From: Promethearchaeota archaeon
GTDB lineage: Archaea; Asgardarchaeota; Lokiarchaeia; Sigyniarchaeales; SOKP01
Assembly (NCBI GenBank): GCA_030599585.1
Contig: JAUVNS010000011.1
Span: forward strand, 96,001-160,000
Length of the DNA stretch: 64,000 nt
Direction of reading: 5' to 3'
In this document: positions 49,647 through 57,388 of the stretch, piece by piece
Layout of the letters: every line of letters starts with the position of its first letter
Position numbering within the stretch: the first letter of the stretch is position 1
Program-made: the position numbers and the translations under genes
The notes under the pieces: generated by a model
Databases searched by the model: none
The model's input: the letters and a program-made list of their open reading frames with translations, nothing else
What the model was told of the DNA's origin: nothing

Positions 49647-50519
49647 TTAAATTGTATCTTCTCCTACTCCTAATTGTGAAATCATCATCCTCTTGAGCTC
49701 TTCTTTGTTTTTAGGTAATCCAAACATATCCGCATATTTATCGGTTGTATTTAATTCTGCTGACCTTCCTTTTTTTACCGCCGTTATTAGATCGTTGTCC
49801 AAGAGGTATTTCACATGCTCGTAAGCGCCACTCCCTCTTAATTTAATAACGGTTGATTTTAAAATTGGCTGTTTCAGAGCAATTACTGTAAGTGTTCTTA
49901 AATAGCGCTCAGCAATAGCACCACCTTTAGCGAATTTGGAAACTGTTTCTGTAAGTTCCGGTCTTAGCTGCATTTGATATTTTTCTCCAATTTGGGCTAC
50001 AATCAATGCACCTTCACGGTCCAAATAGTCAAAAGCAACTACATTTACAAGTTCTTCGACTTCTTTTTTTGGGATTTCTAATTTAGTTGATAATTCTTCT
50101 ACATCCAGAGGTCTACCAGCCGCGTAAAGAGCACCCTCTATTAAATTTCTCCGTAGAATTTTTAATTGTAATTCTAATTCTTCCTTCGTGAGTTCTTTAG
50201 GTATATGGGATTCAACTATATCCGCTCCTATAACTTCGGTCTCTCGTTTGCTTAAGCTTTCTTCTGACGGGTCAAGACTTGATAAATTTTCTTCCTCAAT
50301 ACTTAATTCTTCTTCAATAAACTCTTGGCTATCTTCTTCATCAGAATCTTGTTTAAGATAATCTTCGATGGTTTCTTTGGTCTCTAATTCGATCTCAATA
50401 TCCTCTAAATTCCTTTCTTCTTGAGTAATTTCTTCGGCATCGGTCTCATCTAAAGGTTCTTCTTCATTCGTTTCGTCTTTGAATTGATTTTCCTGTTCTT
50501 TTTCATTATTTTCGTTCAG
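49647..50519 (-). CDS. scpB: SMC-Scp subunit ScpB with a ~115-aa acidic N-terminal extension
   Basis: Frame is open 165 codons upstream of the tracked ORF, through LIEGALYAAGRPLDVEEL, to CTG at 50519 after GGTGA; C-terminal TLTVIALKQP...RG...TTDKYADMFGL. Confidence 0.88.
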   Translation of the reverse strand: MNENNEKEQENQFKDETNEEEPLDETDAEEITQEERNLEDIEIELETKETIEDYLKQDSDEEDSQEFIEEELSIEEENLSSLDPSEESLSKRETEVIGADIVESHIPKELTKEELELQLKILRRNLIEGALYAAGRPLDVEELSTKLEIPKKEVEELVNVVAFDYLDREGALIVAQIGEKYQMQLRPELTETVSKFAKGGAIAERYLRTLTVIALKQPILKSTVIKLRGSGAYEHVKYLLDNDLITAVKKGRSAELNTTDKYADMFGLPKNKEELKRMMISQLGVGEDTI

Positions 50520-50548: not shown

Positions 50549-51553
50549 TTAACTTTTTAAATTTATTGAGAAATCTTTAAAATCTTCGTCTTGAAATAGT
50601 TCTAACTTATTCCCTGTTGAGAGGAACATTAAAGCCAAAAACATGCGAACAAAAGCGAACTTCTTACCAATGTCGCTTTTTTCTTCTATGTTAATAATTT
50701 CTGCCATGTCATAAAAGGAGGTTTCTTTATCATCGAGGTTTATTTTAGTTTTTATTCTGTTAAACCAAGCGTTGTGTAACTCTTCCACAGTTTGCTCCTT
50801 CCCGCTAATGTGTTTCAAAAGTTCTTTTGGTAGTTGTGCTTTAGATTTTTTTTGAATTCGCTGTTCCTTTAATTCATCCCGCCTCATCCTTCGCCTTTTT
50901 AGTTTTTCTTTCTTCTGCATAGTCTCAATAATAGCAGATCTCATAGCGTCAAATAATTCGTCTTTAGTGGAGATTAACATTTTAGGCTGAATAGGTTGTG
51001 GTAAAGATTTGGGTATTGATCTACCGTGCCTTGCTCTAAATTGCGCCAATTCCTCCTTTTTTTGAATTTGTTCTTCGTCCCGTATTATGCTAGAGATTTT
51101 GTAATGATGTAATACTGCTGAAGTTTTAAGCGCGATTCCTGAAATTTTATAATTAATTAAATCTTCATGAAGCATGTTATTGAAGAATTTGTCAACTAAT
51201 GCTGCCAGATCGTAAAATGCAACATTTGATTCCTTAGCAACTTCGGGGTCTAGAAGGCTTGAAAAAGGTGGTTTATGCCAGAACTTTAACTCTAACTTTT
51301 CTTTATACAATAAAGCGGGGTCTTCTTCCTCGCCGGCGACTAACTCTTCTTCCAACACTTCTACATCCACGTTATCTTGAGTTCGATCTACAAATTCTGG
51401 ATGTGAAGCGATCTTTTCTATGAATTTAATAATTTCATTCTTTTTTGATTTAGACGGTATTTTTATGTTGTTTTTACTTGCAAATTCCCTTAATTTCTTT
51501 ACAGACCATTCACTGAAGTTGTATTTTATCTCTTCACTTTCATTTTCTGGAAC
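50549..51553 (-). CDS. scpA: Kleisin ScpA with N-terminal HeH/LEM-like module
   Basis: DLAALVDKF...ISGIALKTSAVL..K N-domain and FLALMFL...LELFQDEDF C-terminal wH; frame open 61 codons upstream of 51370 behind an AGGTG RBS. Exact start (GTT/ATC/ATA at 51553-51559) is uncertain. Confidence 0.82.
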   Translation of the reverse strand, partial: VPENESEEIKYNFSEWSVKKLREFASKNNIKIPSKSKKNEIIKFIEKIASHPEFVDRTQDNVDVEVLEEELVAGEEEDPALLYKEKLELKFWHKPPFSSLLDPEVAKESNVAFYDLAALVDKFFNNMLHEDLINYKISGIALKTSAVLHHYKISSIIRDEEQIQKKEELAQFRARHGRSIPKSLPQPIQPKMLISTKDELFDAMRSAIIETMQKKEKLKRRRMRRDELKEQRIQKKSKAQLPKELLKHISGKEQTVEELHNAWFNRIKTKINLDDKETSFYDMAEIINIEEKSDIGKKFAFVRMFLALMFLSTGNKLELFQDEDFKDFSINLKS

Positions 51554-51579: not shown

Positions 51580-54500
51580 TTAATTTTCTTCAATAGTAGG
51601 GGGTACATCCGGAAGTTCGAGTAACCTTTTTGCTTCTTCTTCTAAATCGACACTAAAAATGTCGGTGATACCGCTTTGTTGCATGGAGACACCGTATATG
51701 CGATCTGCGTTAACTATATTCTCTTCACGATGACTTATTACCAAAAATTGCGCTTGTCTGGCAAATTCTTTGATTACTACACTTACTCTATGAACATTGG
51801 GCCCATCTAATGCTGCATCTATCTCATCCATAATATAAAATGGCGCAGGATAAAATTCCTGAACAGCAAAAATAAATGACAAAGCAACGAGTGTTTTTTC
51901 TCCTCCGCTCAGTATTTCTAAACTGGAGATACGCTTCCCACGAGGTCTAGCTTCTATGCTACATCCACCTTCAAAAGGTTTATCTGGTCTGTCGAGAATC
52001 ATTTTTGCAGATCCCCCCGGTGAAAGCTTCTGAAATATGCGAGCAAACTCACGATTAATTTCGTGGTAAGCCTTCATGAATGTTCGAGTTTTTTCCAATT
52101 CGATTTTTTCAATAGCGTCGAGAATTGCTTTTCGTTCACGTTGTATTGTTTGCCTTCTCATATCTATTTCGTCAAATCTTTCTTTTACAGTATCATATTG
52201 CGTAATAGCTTTTAAGTTAACTGGTTCCAAAGCTTTTTTCTTGTTAGTAGCTGTAGAAATATCTGATTGTAACCCGGATTCTGAAAGCTCGTCAGTCACT
52301 ACCGGCAATGCGCCGTAATCCTTCGATCTCTGGTAAAGAGTTTCTATTTGATCTGTAGTAATAATCTTTTTTGATTCAAAATTGTTTAGTTTTGAATTTT
52401 GCATAGAAATATCAGAGCGTAGGTCGTTTATTACTTTCTGATAATTTTTTTGTTTTTGCCAGGATATATCTTTTCCTTGAATCTGTTTATTAATTTCTTC
52501 CTGTTTTACGTTCTTTTTGTCTTCTTCTTGTTTTAATTCAGTTTCAATGTTTTCAATGTCTTTTACTATTAATTCTATTTGTTTCTCAGTTTCTTTAATG
52601 TCTTGGTTAAGAGATATTATTTTTTGTTCTCGTTCTTTATTTTTATTTAATTCGTTTAATTTTGCTTGTATTTTTTGAAGATCTTTATTGAATTTATTTA
52701 ATTCTTTTTGAACTTTCTTTTGAGCTTCCAACTCTTTGTTTTTATCTTCTCTTAAAGCATCTATGACTAATTGAATTTCAGTGACTTTCTTTTGTACCTC
52801 ATCTACTTGAGTATTAAAACCCTCAACATCTAGAGTACAAGTTTTAATATTTGCTTTAGCTTCCAAGTTTTCCTTAGCTAGTTCTTCAATTGAATTGATA
52901 ACCATCATAACATTTTCAAGTGCTCTTAGGTTATCCATTGTACTTTCTAATTTTTTATTCTGATCACCAATGTGTGCCCTTAACTTTTCGGTATTCTCCC
53001 AAAACTTATTTTTTTCTAAAATATTAGAATCGATTTTTAATGTTAAAGCTTCTTGTTCTAAATTGAGATTTTTAATGTTTTCTTCAGTGTTTATTATGGT
53101 ATTTTTCTTATTTTCTATATTTGAATTTAATTCTTGGACATTTTTCTCAATATCAATAATCTTTTCATAAAAATTTTGTATTCCTTGCAATTCTTGAAGT
53201 CTTTTTTGCAGATCGTCTAATCCTTGTTGCTTTACTTCTATATTTTTCTTGATGGTAGAAACTTTATCCCAGTAATCCTCTTTGAGTTGTTTTAAATTGT
53301 TTATTTCTTCATTGAAATTTTCTTTTTGTTTTTCTCTTATTACATTATTCCTCTGTTTAACCTCAGCATCAGATTTTTCGATTTTTTCAAGTAATTCAGT
53401 GATTCTTTTATTAACTTTTTCTAACCTCTTATTAGTAACTGATAAATCGTCAGAATCATGTTTTTCTTGAGTATTTATCCGGGTTAAATCTTTCTCAATT
53501 TTGTTTAGATCTACATTTTGAGATGCAATATTTTCAGTAATCTCTTCAAGCTGTTTATACTGCTCTTGGGATTTTGACATGGTGAGTTTTCGCAATGATA
53601 AGTATACATTCTCAAGAATTTCCATTAAATCTTGCACAAAGCTATCAAATGTTGATGTAGATTGTTGAATCTCTACATCAGCAGTTTCCTTTACAGAATC
53701 AATTAACTGATCTATCGTGGTATCAACATTTTCAGTAAAAAGAGTTAATGTCTGAAGTATAGACTTGAGAGTTTCAGACACTTCAGCATCCTCTGGTTTC
53801 TGTTCTGCTTCTGCTTCAGCTTCAGAGCTTACGTCTTCAATCGTCGTCATAATATCAATAATGTCAAGGACAAATTGTTTAAAGTTGACCGCTGATGTAT
53901 CAATTGCCTCAGCGTTAGACTGTTGAATGTTACTCTTGATAGATTCAACGGATATATTGATATTCTGAGTTAGCATGTTCAGTATTTGGAGGATTCCGGT
54001 TATATCTTCAGTATTTCTTTCGTATTCTTTTTCTGTATTTTCTATTTTAGCTAACAAATTATTTTTCTCAGTGGTTAGCTCTCCTAACCGTCTTTGAATA
54101 TTATCTTTTTTTTTATTAAGCCCTTCTGATTCAGAGCTAATTTTAGTTAAATTTGCGTTCAGAGTTGACGATTTTAATTCTAAATCTTGTTTTTCTCTCT
54201 CAAGATTTGTCAATTCTTTTTTTAATAGATTTGACCTCGTATTAATATTATCAATTTTAGTTTTGTTATCATTAATTTCTGATTCAATAGAATCTTGTTT
54301 CATTAACAATAATTCTAAATCTTGTTCATTTTTTCTATAAATAGAATCTTCATCTTTTAATTGTTGTCGATAACTGTTTAATTCGTTAGTTAGCGTGTCT
54401 TTTTCCTTTAAAAGCTCTTTTAATGCCTCTTCTGTGTCTTTCCCTTTACTTAATTCTTTGATTTTTTCTTCAGTTTTAATTTTATCTGAGTTCAATGTCT

Positions 54501-56049
54501 CTATCCTATCGGTGTTCATCTTAATCTCTGTAGTTAGTGACGATAACATAGATTTAAAATCTGTTGCCTTTGAATTAAGTTTGTTCTTATCTTCTTGTAG
54601 GGTTATAATAATTTTCTCTAGATCTTGTTGATTTTCGTTCTCTTTTGAGATTTTTATATTCAAGTCATTAATTTCTTTTCTTGTGGCTTCAGCTTCATTT
54701 TTTGTGTTGGCTATCGCATCTTCAATGCTTTCTGATTCTCCTTTTAATTTGCTAAGATCTAGTTCTAATTTCTGTTTTTTTCCTTCGTTTTTTTTAATAT
54801 TTTCTTTCAGAATTTTAATTTGAGCTTTATTCGATGAAATATTTTGCTTTATAATGGAGATTTCTCCATTAAATCCTGTTTTTACATCGCTTTGATCTTT
54901 AATTTTTGCATCAATATCAGCTTGTTTTTGATGTTTACTTTCTATTTCTGCTTTTGCTGCTTCAATCTGGCTCTCTGTATCTGCTACAACCTTCCTTTCT
55001 GATTCAATTAAAGAATCAAATGTTTGATCTTCATCAAGAACCATCTGTAATTTTTCCAATGTATTAATTTCTTGAGAAATTTTTTCAACTGACTTATTTG
55101 CGAGGGTTAAAGATGTTTGATTTGAAGATTGTTGTGTTTTAAGATGAGTAATTTTTTCAGTGATTATTTCCCTTTCTTTTTCTTTTTCAGTTATGGTTTT
55201 TTGAATATTTTCCATAACCAATGATTCTTGTTTTATAATGTCATCCTGTCTTGTTAATTTTTCTTTTAACTCTTCTAAAATTGTATTAGATTCTTCAATA
55301 CTTTTTTCTAGATCATTTTCTTCCTTCCTTAATTTCTCAATCTTTAATGCTATCAATTGAGCGTTGTATAAGTCGATTTGTTCATCTAACTCTTTCCATG
55401 CCAAAGCATCATTCTTTTCCTTTTCTACTTTCTTTAATTGAGAAGAAACTTCTTTGAAAATTGCTTCAAATTGGCCTAGATCTCTTTCAGCCTTCTCTAA
55501 TTCCTTCATAGTTCCATCTTTCATCTCATCGTATTTCTGTAGGCCAATAAGTTCTTCTATAAATATTCTACGGGCTACCGGGTTCATGTGAGTTAATTCT
55601 ACTATTTTCCCTTGCAGAACGAATTGATTGCTTCCATCAGGATCTACATTTGCTGCTGCAAGAGCATTAAGAATTTGAGTTCTAGTGGATTTTTTACCGT
55701 TCATCTTATAACCTCCACCCCCACCTCGTTGAATTGTTCGAGTAACTTCAAATGTTTCTGTTCCACCTGGAAAGATTTCCTCTGAGTTATCGAAATATAA
55801 TGTAACCGAAGCTCTATTTGAAGGGTTTTTTCCTCGGGATCCGGCAAAAATCAAATCTTCAAGGCTCTTAGCTCTCATAGTTTTTTTGCTTAGCCTACCT
55901 AGAGCAAACGTTAAAGCGTCAATAATATTAGATTTTCCTGCACCATTTGGGCCTACTATACATGTAAAACCACTCGAAAGTCTAAGAGTAACAGTTCTGT
56001 CACCAAATGATTTAAATCCGGTCATAGAAATTTTTTTGATGTAAGTCAA
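51580..56049 (-). CDS. smc: SMC ATPase with elongated arms and a non-canonical central domain
   Basis: GPNGAGKS, FVLQG, LSGGEK, IMDEIDAALD, SH loop; directly upstream of scpA and scpB. Confidence 0.93.
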   Translation of the reverse strand: MTYIKKISMTGFKSFGDRTVTLRLSSGFTCIVGPNGAGKSNIIDALTFALGRLSKKTMRAKSLEDLIFAGSRGKNPSNRASVTLYFDNSEEIFPGGTETFEVTRTIQRGGGGGYKMNGKKSTRTQILNALAAANVDPDGSNQFVLQGKIVELTHMNPVARRIFIEELIGLQKYDEMKDGTMKELEKAERDLGQFEAIFKEVSSQLKKVEKEKNDALAWKELDEQIDLYNAQLIALKIEKLRKEENDLEKSIEESNTILEELKEKLTRQDDIIKQESLVMENIQKTITEKEKEREIITEKITHLKTQQSSNQTSLTLANKSVEKISQEINTLEKLQMVLDEDQTFDSLIESERKVVADTESQIEAAKAEIESKHQKQADIDAKIKDQSDVKTGFNGEISIIKQNISSNKAQIKILKENIKKNEGKKQKLELDLSKLKGESESIEDAIANTKNEAEATRKEINDLNIKISKENENQQDLEKIIITLQEDKNKLNSKATDFKSMLSSLTTEIKMNTDRIETLNSDKIKTEEKIKELSKGKDTEEALKELLKEKDTLTNELNSYRQQLKDEDSIYRKNEQDLELLLMKQDSIESEINDNKTKIDNINTRSNLLKKELTNLEREKQDLELKSSTLNANLTKISSESEGLNKKKDNIQRRLGELTTEKNNLLAKIENTEKEYERNTEDITGILQILNMLTQNINISVESIKSNIQQSNAEAIDTSAVNFKQFVLDIIDIMTTIEDVSSEAEAEAEQKPEDAEVSETLKSILQTLTLFTENVDTTIDQLIDSVKETADVEIQQSTSTFDSFVQDLMEILENVYLSLRKLTMSKSQEQYKQLEEITENIASQNVDLNKIEKDLTRINTQEKHDSDDLSVTNKRLEKVNKRITELLEKIEKSDAEVKQRNNVIREKQKENFNEEINNLKQLKEDYWDKVSTIKKNIEVKQQGLDDLQKRLQELQGIQNFYEKIIDIEKNVQELNSNIENKKNTIINTEENIKNLNLEQEALTLKIDSNILEKNKFWENTEKLRAHIGDQNKKLESTMDNLRALENVMMVINSIEELAKENLEAKANIKTCTLDVEGFNTQVDEVQKKVTEIQLVIDALREDKNKELEAQKKVQKELNKFNKDLQKIQAKLNELNKNKEREQKIISLNQDIKETEKQIELIVKDIENIETELKQEEDKKNVKQEEINKQIQGKDISWQKQKNYQKVINDLRSDISMQNSKLNNFESKKIITTDQIETLYQRSKDYGALPVVTDELSESGLQSDISTATNKKKALEPVNLKAITQYDTVKERFDEIDMRRQTIQRERKAILDAIEKIELEKTRTFMKAYHEINREFARIFQKLSPGGSAKMILDRPDKPFEGGCSIEARPRGKRISSLEILSGGEKTLVALSFIFAVQEFYPAPFYIMDEIDAALDGPNVHRVSVVIKEFARQAQFLVISHREENIVNADRIYGVSMQQSGITDIFSVDLEEEAKRLLELPDVPPTIEEN

Positions 56050-56203: not shown

Positions 56204-57388
56204 TTAGTGTTTGGTGAAGATAGCATCCATGATAGGTTTTAGTTGCTTTGGGTTTATGACCATAAAGTAATTATCATAGTTCAAGACGTTGTCGTTAAAG
56301 TAACGAAAATTATTTACATTATTTTTTTTTGAAGCATTTAATATCCCTATATTGCGCAAATTAACGATTAAATGTTTAAATTCCTCTATATTCTTTTCAT
56401 AATCTATTGATTCACAAGTTACATAGTACAGTTCTCTTAATTCCTGGATAGTTATATAAAGATTTGCTTTTTTTAGAAAATAATTAGACAAATTATCCAG
56501 AAAAATTAAATTTAACAGATCTGACTCTGAGATATAGCTTACCATACTGAATTCATCTGTAATTTGAAGGGTGTCAAATTGATTTTGAAGAATATCATAA
56601 ATCTCGAACTTTTTCAAAGTAATTTTTTGATTTAAAACAGGATAAAGCTCTCTTAAAATTTCGATACCTTTTCCGGGAACAGGTACATGGTGCTCGAAAA
56701 TTAAATCAGTAATTAAATCTATTAACTCGTTATCTATCTCATTTTTGAAAGCCAATGAAATTCTTTGCTTTATAATGTCGTTAAGCTCGGAGAATGAAAA
56801 ATAATCTAACTTCTTCTTAAAGTCAAATTCACTCATAATTTCTAGGATAGACGATCTTAAAACTTGATTACCCGTAGATATTACATTAATTTTGTTTTCT
56901 TTGCCGTATTTTAAAAATTTTTTAAAAGCCTCTGGTTGTATGTGTTCAATGTTATTAAACACTATGGTGATATTATGGTCTACTTTTCTACATACAAGCT
57001 TAAATAAGTTCCATAAATCCAAGATAGATGAATTTAGGAACGATTTATAATCAAAATTGATGTTCTTTCTACTTCCAACTTCAGCTATTAACGAAACTAA
57101 AATCTCTTCCACACTTTTTTCTGAACAATCAATTTGGATTTTTATAAGTTCAGGATTTAAAGTAGATATGTCGTTCAAGACCGAATTTACAATGACCTTT
57201 TTCCCTATACCTTGGATTCCTTGAAATAATATATTCAGTTGAAATTCATCATGTAATGAATCTTTAAGAATTGAATAGAGCGCTTTTTCTTCCGTTTTCC
57301 GATGTAATATTTTAGGAGGAATGTAGGTCTGATCAAATAACGCTCTTGGACCTACAAATTCGTTATTTATCCTTTGTGCAGAAATCAT
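56204..57388 (-). CDS. Orc1/Cdc6-like protein with degenerate ATPase motifs
   Basis: FDQTYIPPKILHRKTE, GIQGIGKK, IVFNNIE, YFSFSELNDIIKQR, C-terminal wH. Confidence 0.8.
   Translation of the reverse strand: MISAQRINNEFVGPRALFDQTYIPPKILHRKTEEKALYSILKDSLHDEFQLNILFQGIQGIGKKVIVNSVLNDISTLNPELIKIQIDCSEKSVEEILVSLIAEVGSRKNINFDYKSFLNSSILDLWNLFKLVCRKVDHNITIVFNNIEHIQPEAFKKFLKYGKENKINVISTGNQVLRSSILEIMSEFDFKKKLDYFSFSELNDIIKQRISLAFKNEIDNELIDLITDLIFEHHVPVPGKGIEILRELYPVLNQKITLKKFEIYDILQNQFDTLQITDEFSMVSYISESDLLNLIFLDNLSNYFLKKANLYITIQELRELYYVTCESIDYEKNIEEFKHLIVNLRNIGILNASKKNNVNNFRYFNDNVLNYDNYFMVINPKQLKPIMDAIFTKH

Follow-up and report, generated by a model that had tools for sequence, protein, structure and literature searches.

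The arm of a hinge-less Asgard archaeal Smc protein is probably built from three tandem modules and changes length in paired steps

A 64,000-nucleotide stretch from a Promethearchaeota archaeon of the Asgard lineage Lokiarchaeia (contig JAUVNS010000011.1 of assembly GCA_030599585.1, positions 96,001–160,000 of the forward strand; hereafter the window) encodes on its minus strand an Smc protein, a member of the SMC (structural maintenance of chromosomes) family, of 1489 amino acids (aa). We conclude, with a probability of about 0.75, that this protein's coiled-coil arm consists of three tandem modules, duplicated on both of its strands, and that its length changes in whole paired steps, one unit on the N-terminal strand (N arm) together with one on the C-terminal strand (C arm). 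The conclusion draws on profile similarity among three consecutive units of each strand (N1–N3 and C1–C3, Table 1), and on a clade of shorter relatives in which one block is missing from each strand.

The original prediction, made from the DNA letters, had named eight marker words spaced 97, 98 and 97 aa in the N arm and 90, 90 and 90 aa in the C arm, and words and spacings alike are exact in the 1489-aa translation. The N-arm markers are KTQQSSN (starting at residue 304), KQNISSN (401), KSMLSSL (499) and KTKIDNI (596), and the C-arm markers EDYW (924), NKFW (1014), NKEL (1104) and DISW (1194). Four markers per arm bound three units, because the fourth is an end boundary alone. Within the single sequence of the C arm, an offset of 90 ranks first of 250 offsets (z of 7.2 against plain shuffles), followed by 180, and under a shuffle that preserves the hydrophobic/polar pattern it still attains a z of 4.9, where the remaining in-phase offsets give about 3. 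In the N arm, neither 97 nor 98 is remarkable as a single offset, but 195 is conspicuous. BLASTP of the Smc against itself returned the identity match alone and is uninformative on repeats. Single-sequence Smith–Waterman comparison with unshifted BLOSUM62 was discarded, having entered a composition-driven linear regime in which everything aligned with everything.

The repeats emerge clearly once the family is considered. A profile of 16 long-form orthologues, 36–69% identical to the query, was aligned with itself. The top off-diagonal alignment of the N arm matches residues 251–527 with 348–624, at offsets of 97/98 and a score of 146, and the second lies at an offset of 195 (score 90), all others scoring at most 37. 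For the C arm, the top alignment matches residues 910–1138 with 1000–1228 at an offset of 90 (score 85), followed by an offset of 180/181 (score 31.5) and by others of at most 18. Alignment of the N-arm with the C-arm profile scores 28 at most. As a null model, 7-column blocks were shuffled within segments bounded by heptad breaks, a procedure that keeps composition, heptad phase and break positions. Maxima of the shuffled profiles were 35.3 ± 5.5 (N) and 23.0 ± 4.4 (C), and in neither arm did any of the 40 shuffles attain the score of the real profile (z of 20 and 14, respectively). The periodicity is thus significant in both arms against shuffled coiled-coil controls, the check that had been proposed for it.

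Comparison of unit profiles by hhalign in global mode delimits the repeats. Within the N arm, N1 and N2 align with a score of 68.8, N2 and N3 with 83.8 (probability 98.7) and N1 and N3 with 45.6; within the C arm, the scores are 86.6 for C1 and C2 (probability 98.8), 49.9 for C1 and C3 and 42.7 for C2 and C3. All other unit pairs, including those with flanking units and every N–C pair, score 6–36. The claim of triplicated segments is borne out by these comparisons, which give three true repeats per strand, spanning residues 304–595 in the N arm and 924–1193 in the C arm. So is the claim that the segments are matched, since the units are collinear over their full length (68.8, 83.8 and 86.6 versus 6–36 for the control pairs). 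N2–N3 and C1–C2, the most similar pairs of their strands, would lie opposite one another if the arm is antiparallel. Further repeats were considered after these (residues 596–692 and 1194–1283) and before them (207–303 and 834–923), and were rejected, all being at hhalign background.

A step of about 187 aa in the lengths of orthologues had also been predicted, and the family indeed falls into two classes, 97 + 88/90 aa apart, with nothing between. When clustered at 50% identity, its full-length members measure 1464–1497 aa down to 33% identity, with one additional member of 1296 aa. Among 160 family proteins, 149 are 1460–1505 aa long and nine are 1290–1304 aa, while the other two come from truncated genes. 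A search with the short protein recovered nine full-length clusters of 1290–1304 aa, all with both gaps. The short protein and its counterparts in two species genomes (sister taxonomic family) have intact heads, both arm gaps and a shorter apex loop. Residues 494–590 and 878–965 of the window protein are both missing in all ten short-clade sequences. The C block measures 90 aa in most long forms, owing to two additional residues at 909 (108/158 long forms), which makes the step 187 aa. Gap starts are tolerated over 474–522 in the N arm and 863–901 in the C arm, a fuzziness of about 25 residues that is expected in tandem repeats.

Apart from this step, arm length is held constant. No indel occurs in residues 170–740 among the 158 long forms, down to 36% identity, and N-arm length conservation is unusually strict for a coiled coil. 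The sole recurrent indel in either arm lies between residues 909 and 910 (window ~53320–53325), where 50 of the 158 long forms, namely this protein and its close relatives, are without two residues; it coincides with a predicted break in the C-strand helix (910–912). The short form as an assembly or gene-calling artefact was rejected because both in-frame gaps recur in nine full-length clusters and in two species genomes. Proteins of 1411, 1326 and 1194 aa, candidates for intermediate arm lengths, were rejected because their genes are truncated at the C-terminal end. An hhalign comparison of the family with 54 canonical-length SMCs, which returned one 97-aa gap and then scattered arm gaps, was judged unreliable and was not used.

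Each unit has a recognizable anatomy. An AlphaFold2 model of residues 165–1325, computed from a 35-sequence alignment (mean predicted local distance difference test score (pLDDT) of 77), is nearly all helix from 169 to 1324, with one turn-back at the acidic loop 748–754. In a Viterbi fit the heptad register is unbroken over long stretches, and antiparallel pairing of the two strands of the arm is probable from this architecture. The model places loops of 9, 6 and 5 residues in the N strand, one in each N unit (joints J1–J3, Table 1), while C-strand breaks are predicted at 910–912, at 954–958 and at a conserved head-proximal joint (1246–1256). A model of the short-form arm (mean pLDDT of 79) has two N-strand loops versus the three of the long form. 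The Viterbi fit calls one-residue heptad deletions in the N arm at 342 and 537, 195 apart and beside Gly341 and Gly536, and in the C arm at 957, 1047 and 1135, about 90 residues apart. An N unit accordingly comprises about 92 helical residues and a loop of 5–9, and a C unit comprises 13 heptads minus one residue. That the roughly seven extra N-arm residues form periodic joints, as originally suggested, agrees with these predicted loops, which occur once per N unit and absorb 7–8 extra residues. Short motifs recur as well: K..(L/I)SS opens the N units, and Phe-Trp, then 'qrl' at the deletion, is found in C1 and C2. Adding the positions of the N joints (~536, 438 and 341) to those of the C deletions (957, 1047 and 1135) gives 1493, 1485 and 1476. 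These sums drop by 8–9 per module, as antiparallel 97.5/90 pairing would require, and would extrapolate to an apex near residue 750.

Work on Bacillus subtilis provides a framework for these numbers. When the Smc arm of this bacterium was resized, function was confined to length regimes that recur every 91 aa, near the ~99-aa superhelical period, with failure of ATPase-driven relocation from loading sites at improper lengths, and natural arm lengths in prokaryotes have modes at 238, 341, 423 and 515 aa (Burmann et al. 2017, Mol Cell, PMC5344682); the rule of about 91 residues quoted in the original prediction is therefore confirmed in its source. By the same type of measure, mean arm length in the present family is about 507 aa for the long and about 413 aa for the short form, near the modes at 515 and 423. 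Discrete arm-length classes some 91–100 residues apart are likewise found here (97 in the N arm, 88–90 in the C arm).

We postulate that each module pairs a 97–98-residue N unit with a 90-residue C unit, whose one-residue deletion would face the loop of its partner. Such a module would be about 13.4 nm long (90 × 0.1485 nm), and its residue count would match both the 91-aa functional and the ~99-aa superhelical period of Bacillus Smc. Judging from these numbers, one module would correspond to one superhelical turn and the head-to-apex phase would be preserved, such that the arm could be lengthened or shortened by a whole paired module while the apex kept its orientation to the heads. Because the units of each strand look like diverged copies of each other, the arm would have grown by segment duplication on both strands. 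Selection appears to permit only whole paired steps, with three modules in one clade and two in its sister clade.

Several observations weigh against this proposal. The identity between units is only about 15–22%, and neither Tandem Repeats Finder nor a direct-repeat scan detected a DNA-level repeat at a spacing of 270 or 291–294 nucleotides; any duplication must therefore be ancient. The hhalign E-values are inflated in coiled coils. The top-scoring gaps, 494–590 in the N arm and 878–965 in the C arm, face each other only within their tolerance ranges, and strand pairing and superhelical phase derive from residue numbers, not model coordinates. A paired change also takes two events in the DNA, separated by about 0.9 kb, and among the family proteins an intermediate altered on one strand was not seen. 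Lastly, the coiled-coil pitch of the Smc rod, about 170 Å (Diebold-Durand et al. 2017, PMC5526789) or about 115 residues, fits one module less well, so that 'one module, one turn' is approximate.

The alternative with the most in its favour concerns direction only, namely that the three-module form is ancestral and that the short clade lost one module per strand, whereas the original prediction took the long form to have arisen by gain. When the head phylogeny is rooted on canonical SMCs, the short clade (support of 100) is sister to all long forms (support of 96), and therefore one change in either direction explains the tree. Loss would fit the observation that the short-form units align clearly with N2 and N4 and not with N3, a shift of the gap by one unit costing about 110 score units. 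Against it stands a module tree, in which each N unit was joined to the C unit facing it (189 columns). M1 is separated from M2 plus M3 with full support, whereas short-form M2, long-form M2 and M3 form a three-way split (log-likelihood differences of 0.05–0.2; approximately unbiased test p of 0.43–0.48). M2 and M3 would accordingly have duplicated not long before the long and short forms diverged, a timing with which loss agrees no better than gain along the stem of the long forms. The arms of the canonical Smc outgroup are, moreover, shorter still (~341 aa), and ordered parsimony would favour a series from 341 to ~413 to ~507 aa. On balance we regard loss as a credible minority view of the last step.

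Convergence is a less probable alternative to duplication, and we consider it unlikely. A recurring structural need, such as arm–arm contacts in each turn or a joint at fixed intervals, could impose similar residues at the corresponding position of each period. The most conserved recurring features are indeed short motifs (K..LSS, Phe-Trp and 'qrl', and the Gly joints), the excess similarity among C units falls mostly on core and flanking heptad positions (z of 1.6 at outer positions), and the Smc rod does have periodic arm–arm contacts (PMC5526789). However, the units are collinearly similar over their full extent (97 columns in the N arm and 90 in the C arm, with an hhalign probability of 98–99%), well above controls, and among the N units the outer heptad positions b, c and f share in the excess (z of 6.5). 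A profile of 54 canonical-length SMCs, more diffuse and in this respect a partial control, also has no dominant long period. That the eye picked out a pattern due to chance, or to the composition of a coiled coil rich in Lys, Glu, Asn and Ile, is scarcely credible, for although hand-cut units of this protein alone give N–N and C–C Smith–Waterman scores that are no higher than, and not separable from, N–C scores, and 61 canonical-length SMCs reach single-sequence autocorrelation maxima that are comparably high (a further point against the modular arm, though theirs lie at scattered offsets), the heptad-preserving shuffles never attain the profile scores, the autocorrelation of nine family members, with identities as low as 36%, is maximal at 195 for the N arm (9/9) and at 90 for the C arm (8/9), and the 187-aa step, predicted independently, was indeed found.

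The tandem modules lead to an apex that differs from the globular hinge of other Smc proteins. SMC_hinge (PF06470) has no match in the window Smc at an E-value of 0.01 or better, although the same model detects a hinge elsewhere in the genome, and none of the listed Smc homologues carries PF06470. Residues 680–840 have no sequence match in the PDB, and a CxxC hook was not found in the apex region (693–833). AlphaFold2 renders this region as all helix with a break at 748–754, a low-confidence helical hairpin (pLDDT of 42–67). One guess is that two such apex hairpins dimerize as a four-helix bundle.

Table 1. Features of the smc locus, with positions in the window and residues of the 1489-aa Smc
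Feature	Residues	Window position	Strand	Basis and remarks
Smc gene	1489 aa	51580..56049	(-)	Open reading frame (ORF) list and translation; TTG start; ABC heads condensin-type, very long arms
N1	304–400 (97 aa)	54850..55140	(-)	Opens with K..LSS; contains J1; marker, consensus alignment, hhalign
N2	401–498 (98 aa)	54556..54849	(-)	Contains J2; marker, consensus alignment, hhalign
N3	499–595 (97 aa)	54265..54555	(-)	Contains J3; corresponds approximately to the block that short forms lack
C1	924–1013 (90 aa)	53011..53280	(-)	Conserved Phe-Trp 926–927; one-residue heptad deletion 957
C2	1014–1103 (90 aa)	52741..53010	(-)	Phe-Trp 1016–1017; heptad deletion 1047
C3	1104–1193 (90 aa)	52471..52740	(-)	Heptad deletion 1135
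N-arm block absent from short forms	494–590 (97 aa)	54280..54570	(-)	MAFFT E-INS-i and L-INS-i agree
C-arm block absent from short forms	878–965 (88 aa here)	53155..53418	(-)	MAFFT E-INS-i and L-INS-i agree
Joint J1	335–343	55021..55047	(-)	Loop by DSSP in the AlphaFold2 model, model residues 171–179; conserved Gly341; heptad phase jump -1 (Viterbi break 342)
Joint J2	436–441	54727..54744	(-)	Loop by DSSP in the AlphaFold2 model, model residues 272–277; heptad phase kept
Joint J3	534–538	54436..54450	(-)	Loop by DSSP in the AlphaFold2 model, model residues 370–374; conserved Gly536; heptad phase jump -1 (Viterbi break 537)
Apex region	693–833	53551..53973	(-)	Conserved amphipathic helices around acidic loop 743–756, chain turn-back; replaces hinge
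ScpB (kite subunit) gene		49647..50024	(-)	Pfam SMC_ScpB PF04079, E 5e-23; downstream of smc
273-aa ORF		50549..51370	(-)	ORF list; position of kleisin ScpA, between smc and scpB

The window protein is an Smc by its heads and probably by its partner genes, yet one in which the hinge is not found. Pfam SMC_N (PF02463) matches residues 3–1462 with 144 bits, and the translation contains the motifs of a split ATPase head of the ABC type (GPNGAGKS, LSGGEKTL and DEIDAALD). The best PDB matches of the heads are to Pyrococcus Smc (5xei, 5xns and 4i99; E-values of 1e-95 to 1e-118). Its start codon is TTG (56047–56049), where many orthologues have ATG, and the N-terminal (L/M)TYIKK is conserved. A 394-aa ORF lies immediately upstream of smc (56204–57388, minus strand); neither this nor the 273-aa ORF (50549–51370) has a Pfam match at an E-value of 0.01 or better. 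A second SMC-superfamily gene of the same genome (contig C40, L014:1974–5480, minus strand; ~1160 aa) carries SMC_hinge (E-value of 1.7e-10) and divergent head motifs (GPNWSGKT, LSGGQ and DEAGMFLD), and the window gene is therefore the condensin-type one. The second gene may encode an SMC5/6-like protein or another archaeal SMC-related paralogue; its reading frame is already open some 100 codons upstream of its first ATG.

The listed homologues of the window Smc are annotated as Lokiarchaeota or Promethearchaeota. In species genomes its occurrence is almost limited to a single order of the phylum: the taxonomic family to which the window belongs has it in 117 of 134 genomes, a second family in 13 of 14 and another in two of four. 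The cultivated Asgard archaeon Lokiarchaeum ossiferum has an Smc of the long form (1505 aa). Long-form genes also occur in G063 (L009) and G039, a pair of genomes whose assigned families are distant ones within the phylum. The heads of one of these long forms are identical to those of P0123, a protein that groups with the sequence from G132 (L007; second family, window's order), and the pair looks like mis-binned contigs or recent transfer.

In the open-access literature we found no description of sequence repeats in SMC arms, of a natural pair of clades that differ by one module, or of this hinge-less Asgard family. The 2017 experiments in Bacillus left open why the spacing is about 91 residues and how evolution moves between allowed lengths. 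The present family is a natural experiment on these questions at residue resolution, in which length changes by a sequence module with defined limits: besides the module step, almost no residue has been gained or lost in about 1100 arm residues across 158 sequences. It also raises an evolutionary question of its own, as a paired change needs two separate mutations and an intermediate was not seen among the family proteins, and its Asgard lineage gives it a bearing on the SMC machinery of the archaeal ancestor. We would tentatively extend the scheme, as a doubtful generalization, to SMC arms at large. Arm length might then evolve in quanta and not by gradual drift, a paired one-turn module with its own joint being duplicated or deleted on both strands; this could yield the modes at 238, 341, 423 and 515 aa across prokaryotic and eukaryotic SMCs, and the spaced joints, Ser-Ser and Phe-Trp sites might be elements of the motor. 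If so, these joints and sites could be zipper contacts between the arms, or flex points one turn apart, and not leftovers of duplication.

Three known systems place these arms in context. The B. subtilis Smc–ScpAB complex belongs to the same family by head sequence and probably by operon, and it shares the discrete arm-length regimes. The study of that protein (PMC5344682) concerned length classes and engineered constructs, and a text search of it returned no mention of duplication. Unlike in B. subtilis, the step in the Asgard Smc can be seen in the residues as a repeat that carries a joint of its own, two natural clades are precisely one such unit apart and the hinge is absent. Pyrococcus Smc (5xei, 5xns and 4i99; rod model in PMC5526789) has the closest solved heads and a likewise antiparallel two-stranded arm, and the head-proximal joint is conserved between the two proteins (Gly1246 and Pro1249–1250 in the Asgard Smc). 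In contrast, its arms are of about 340 aa as compared with ~507, it has a globular hinge in place of a helical hairpin apex, and no tandem arm repeats have been described in it. By analogy only, the Asgard arm also resembles tropomyosin, with its seven quasi-repeats, and the myosin II rod, with 28-residue zones and skip residues every ~196–197 residues (PMC5344682, discussion): in all of these a long period is laid over the heptads and discontinuities are regularly spaced, the phase jumps of the N arm being 195 apart. Tropomyosin and the myosin II rod are, however, parallel homodimers whose period is matched to a partner or to filament packing, whereas the Asgard Smc would achieve its period within an intramolecular antiparallel hairpin, between strands of different unit length.

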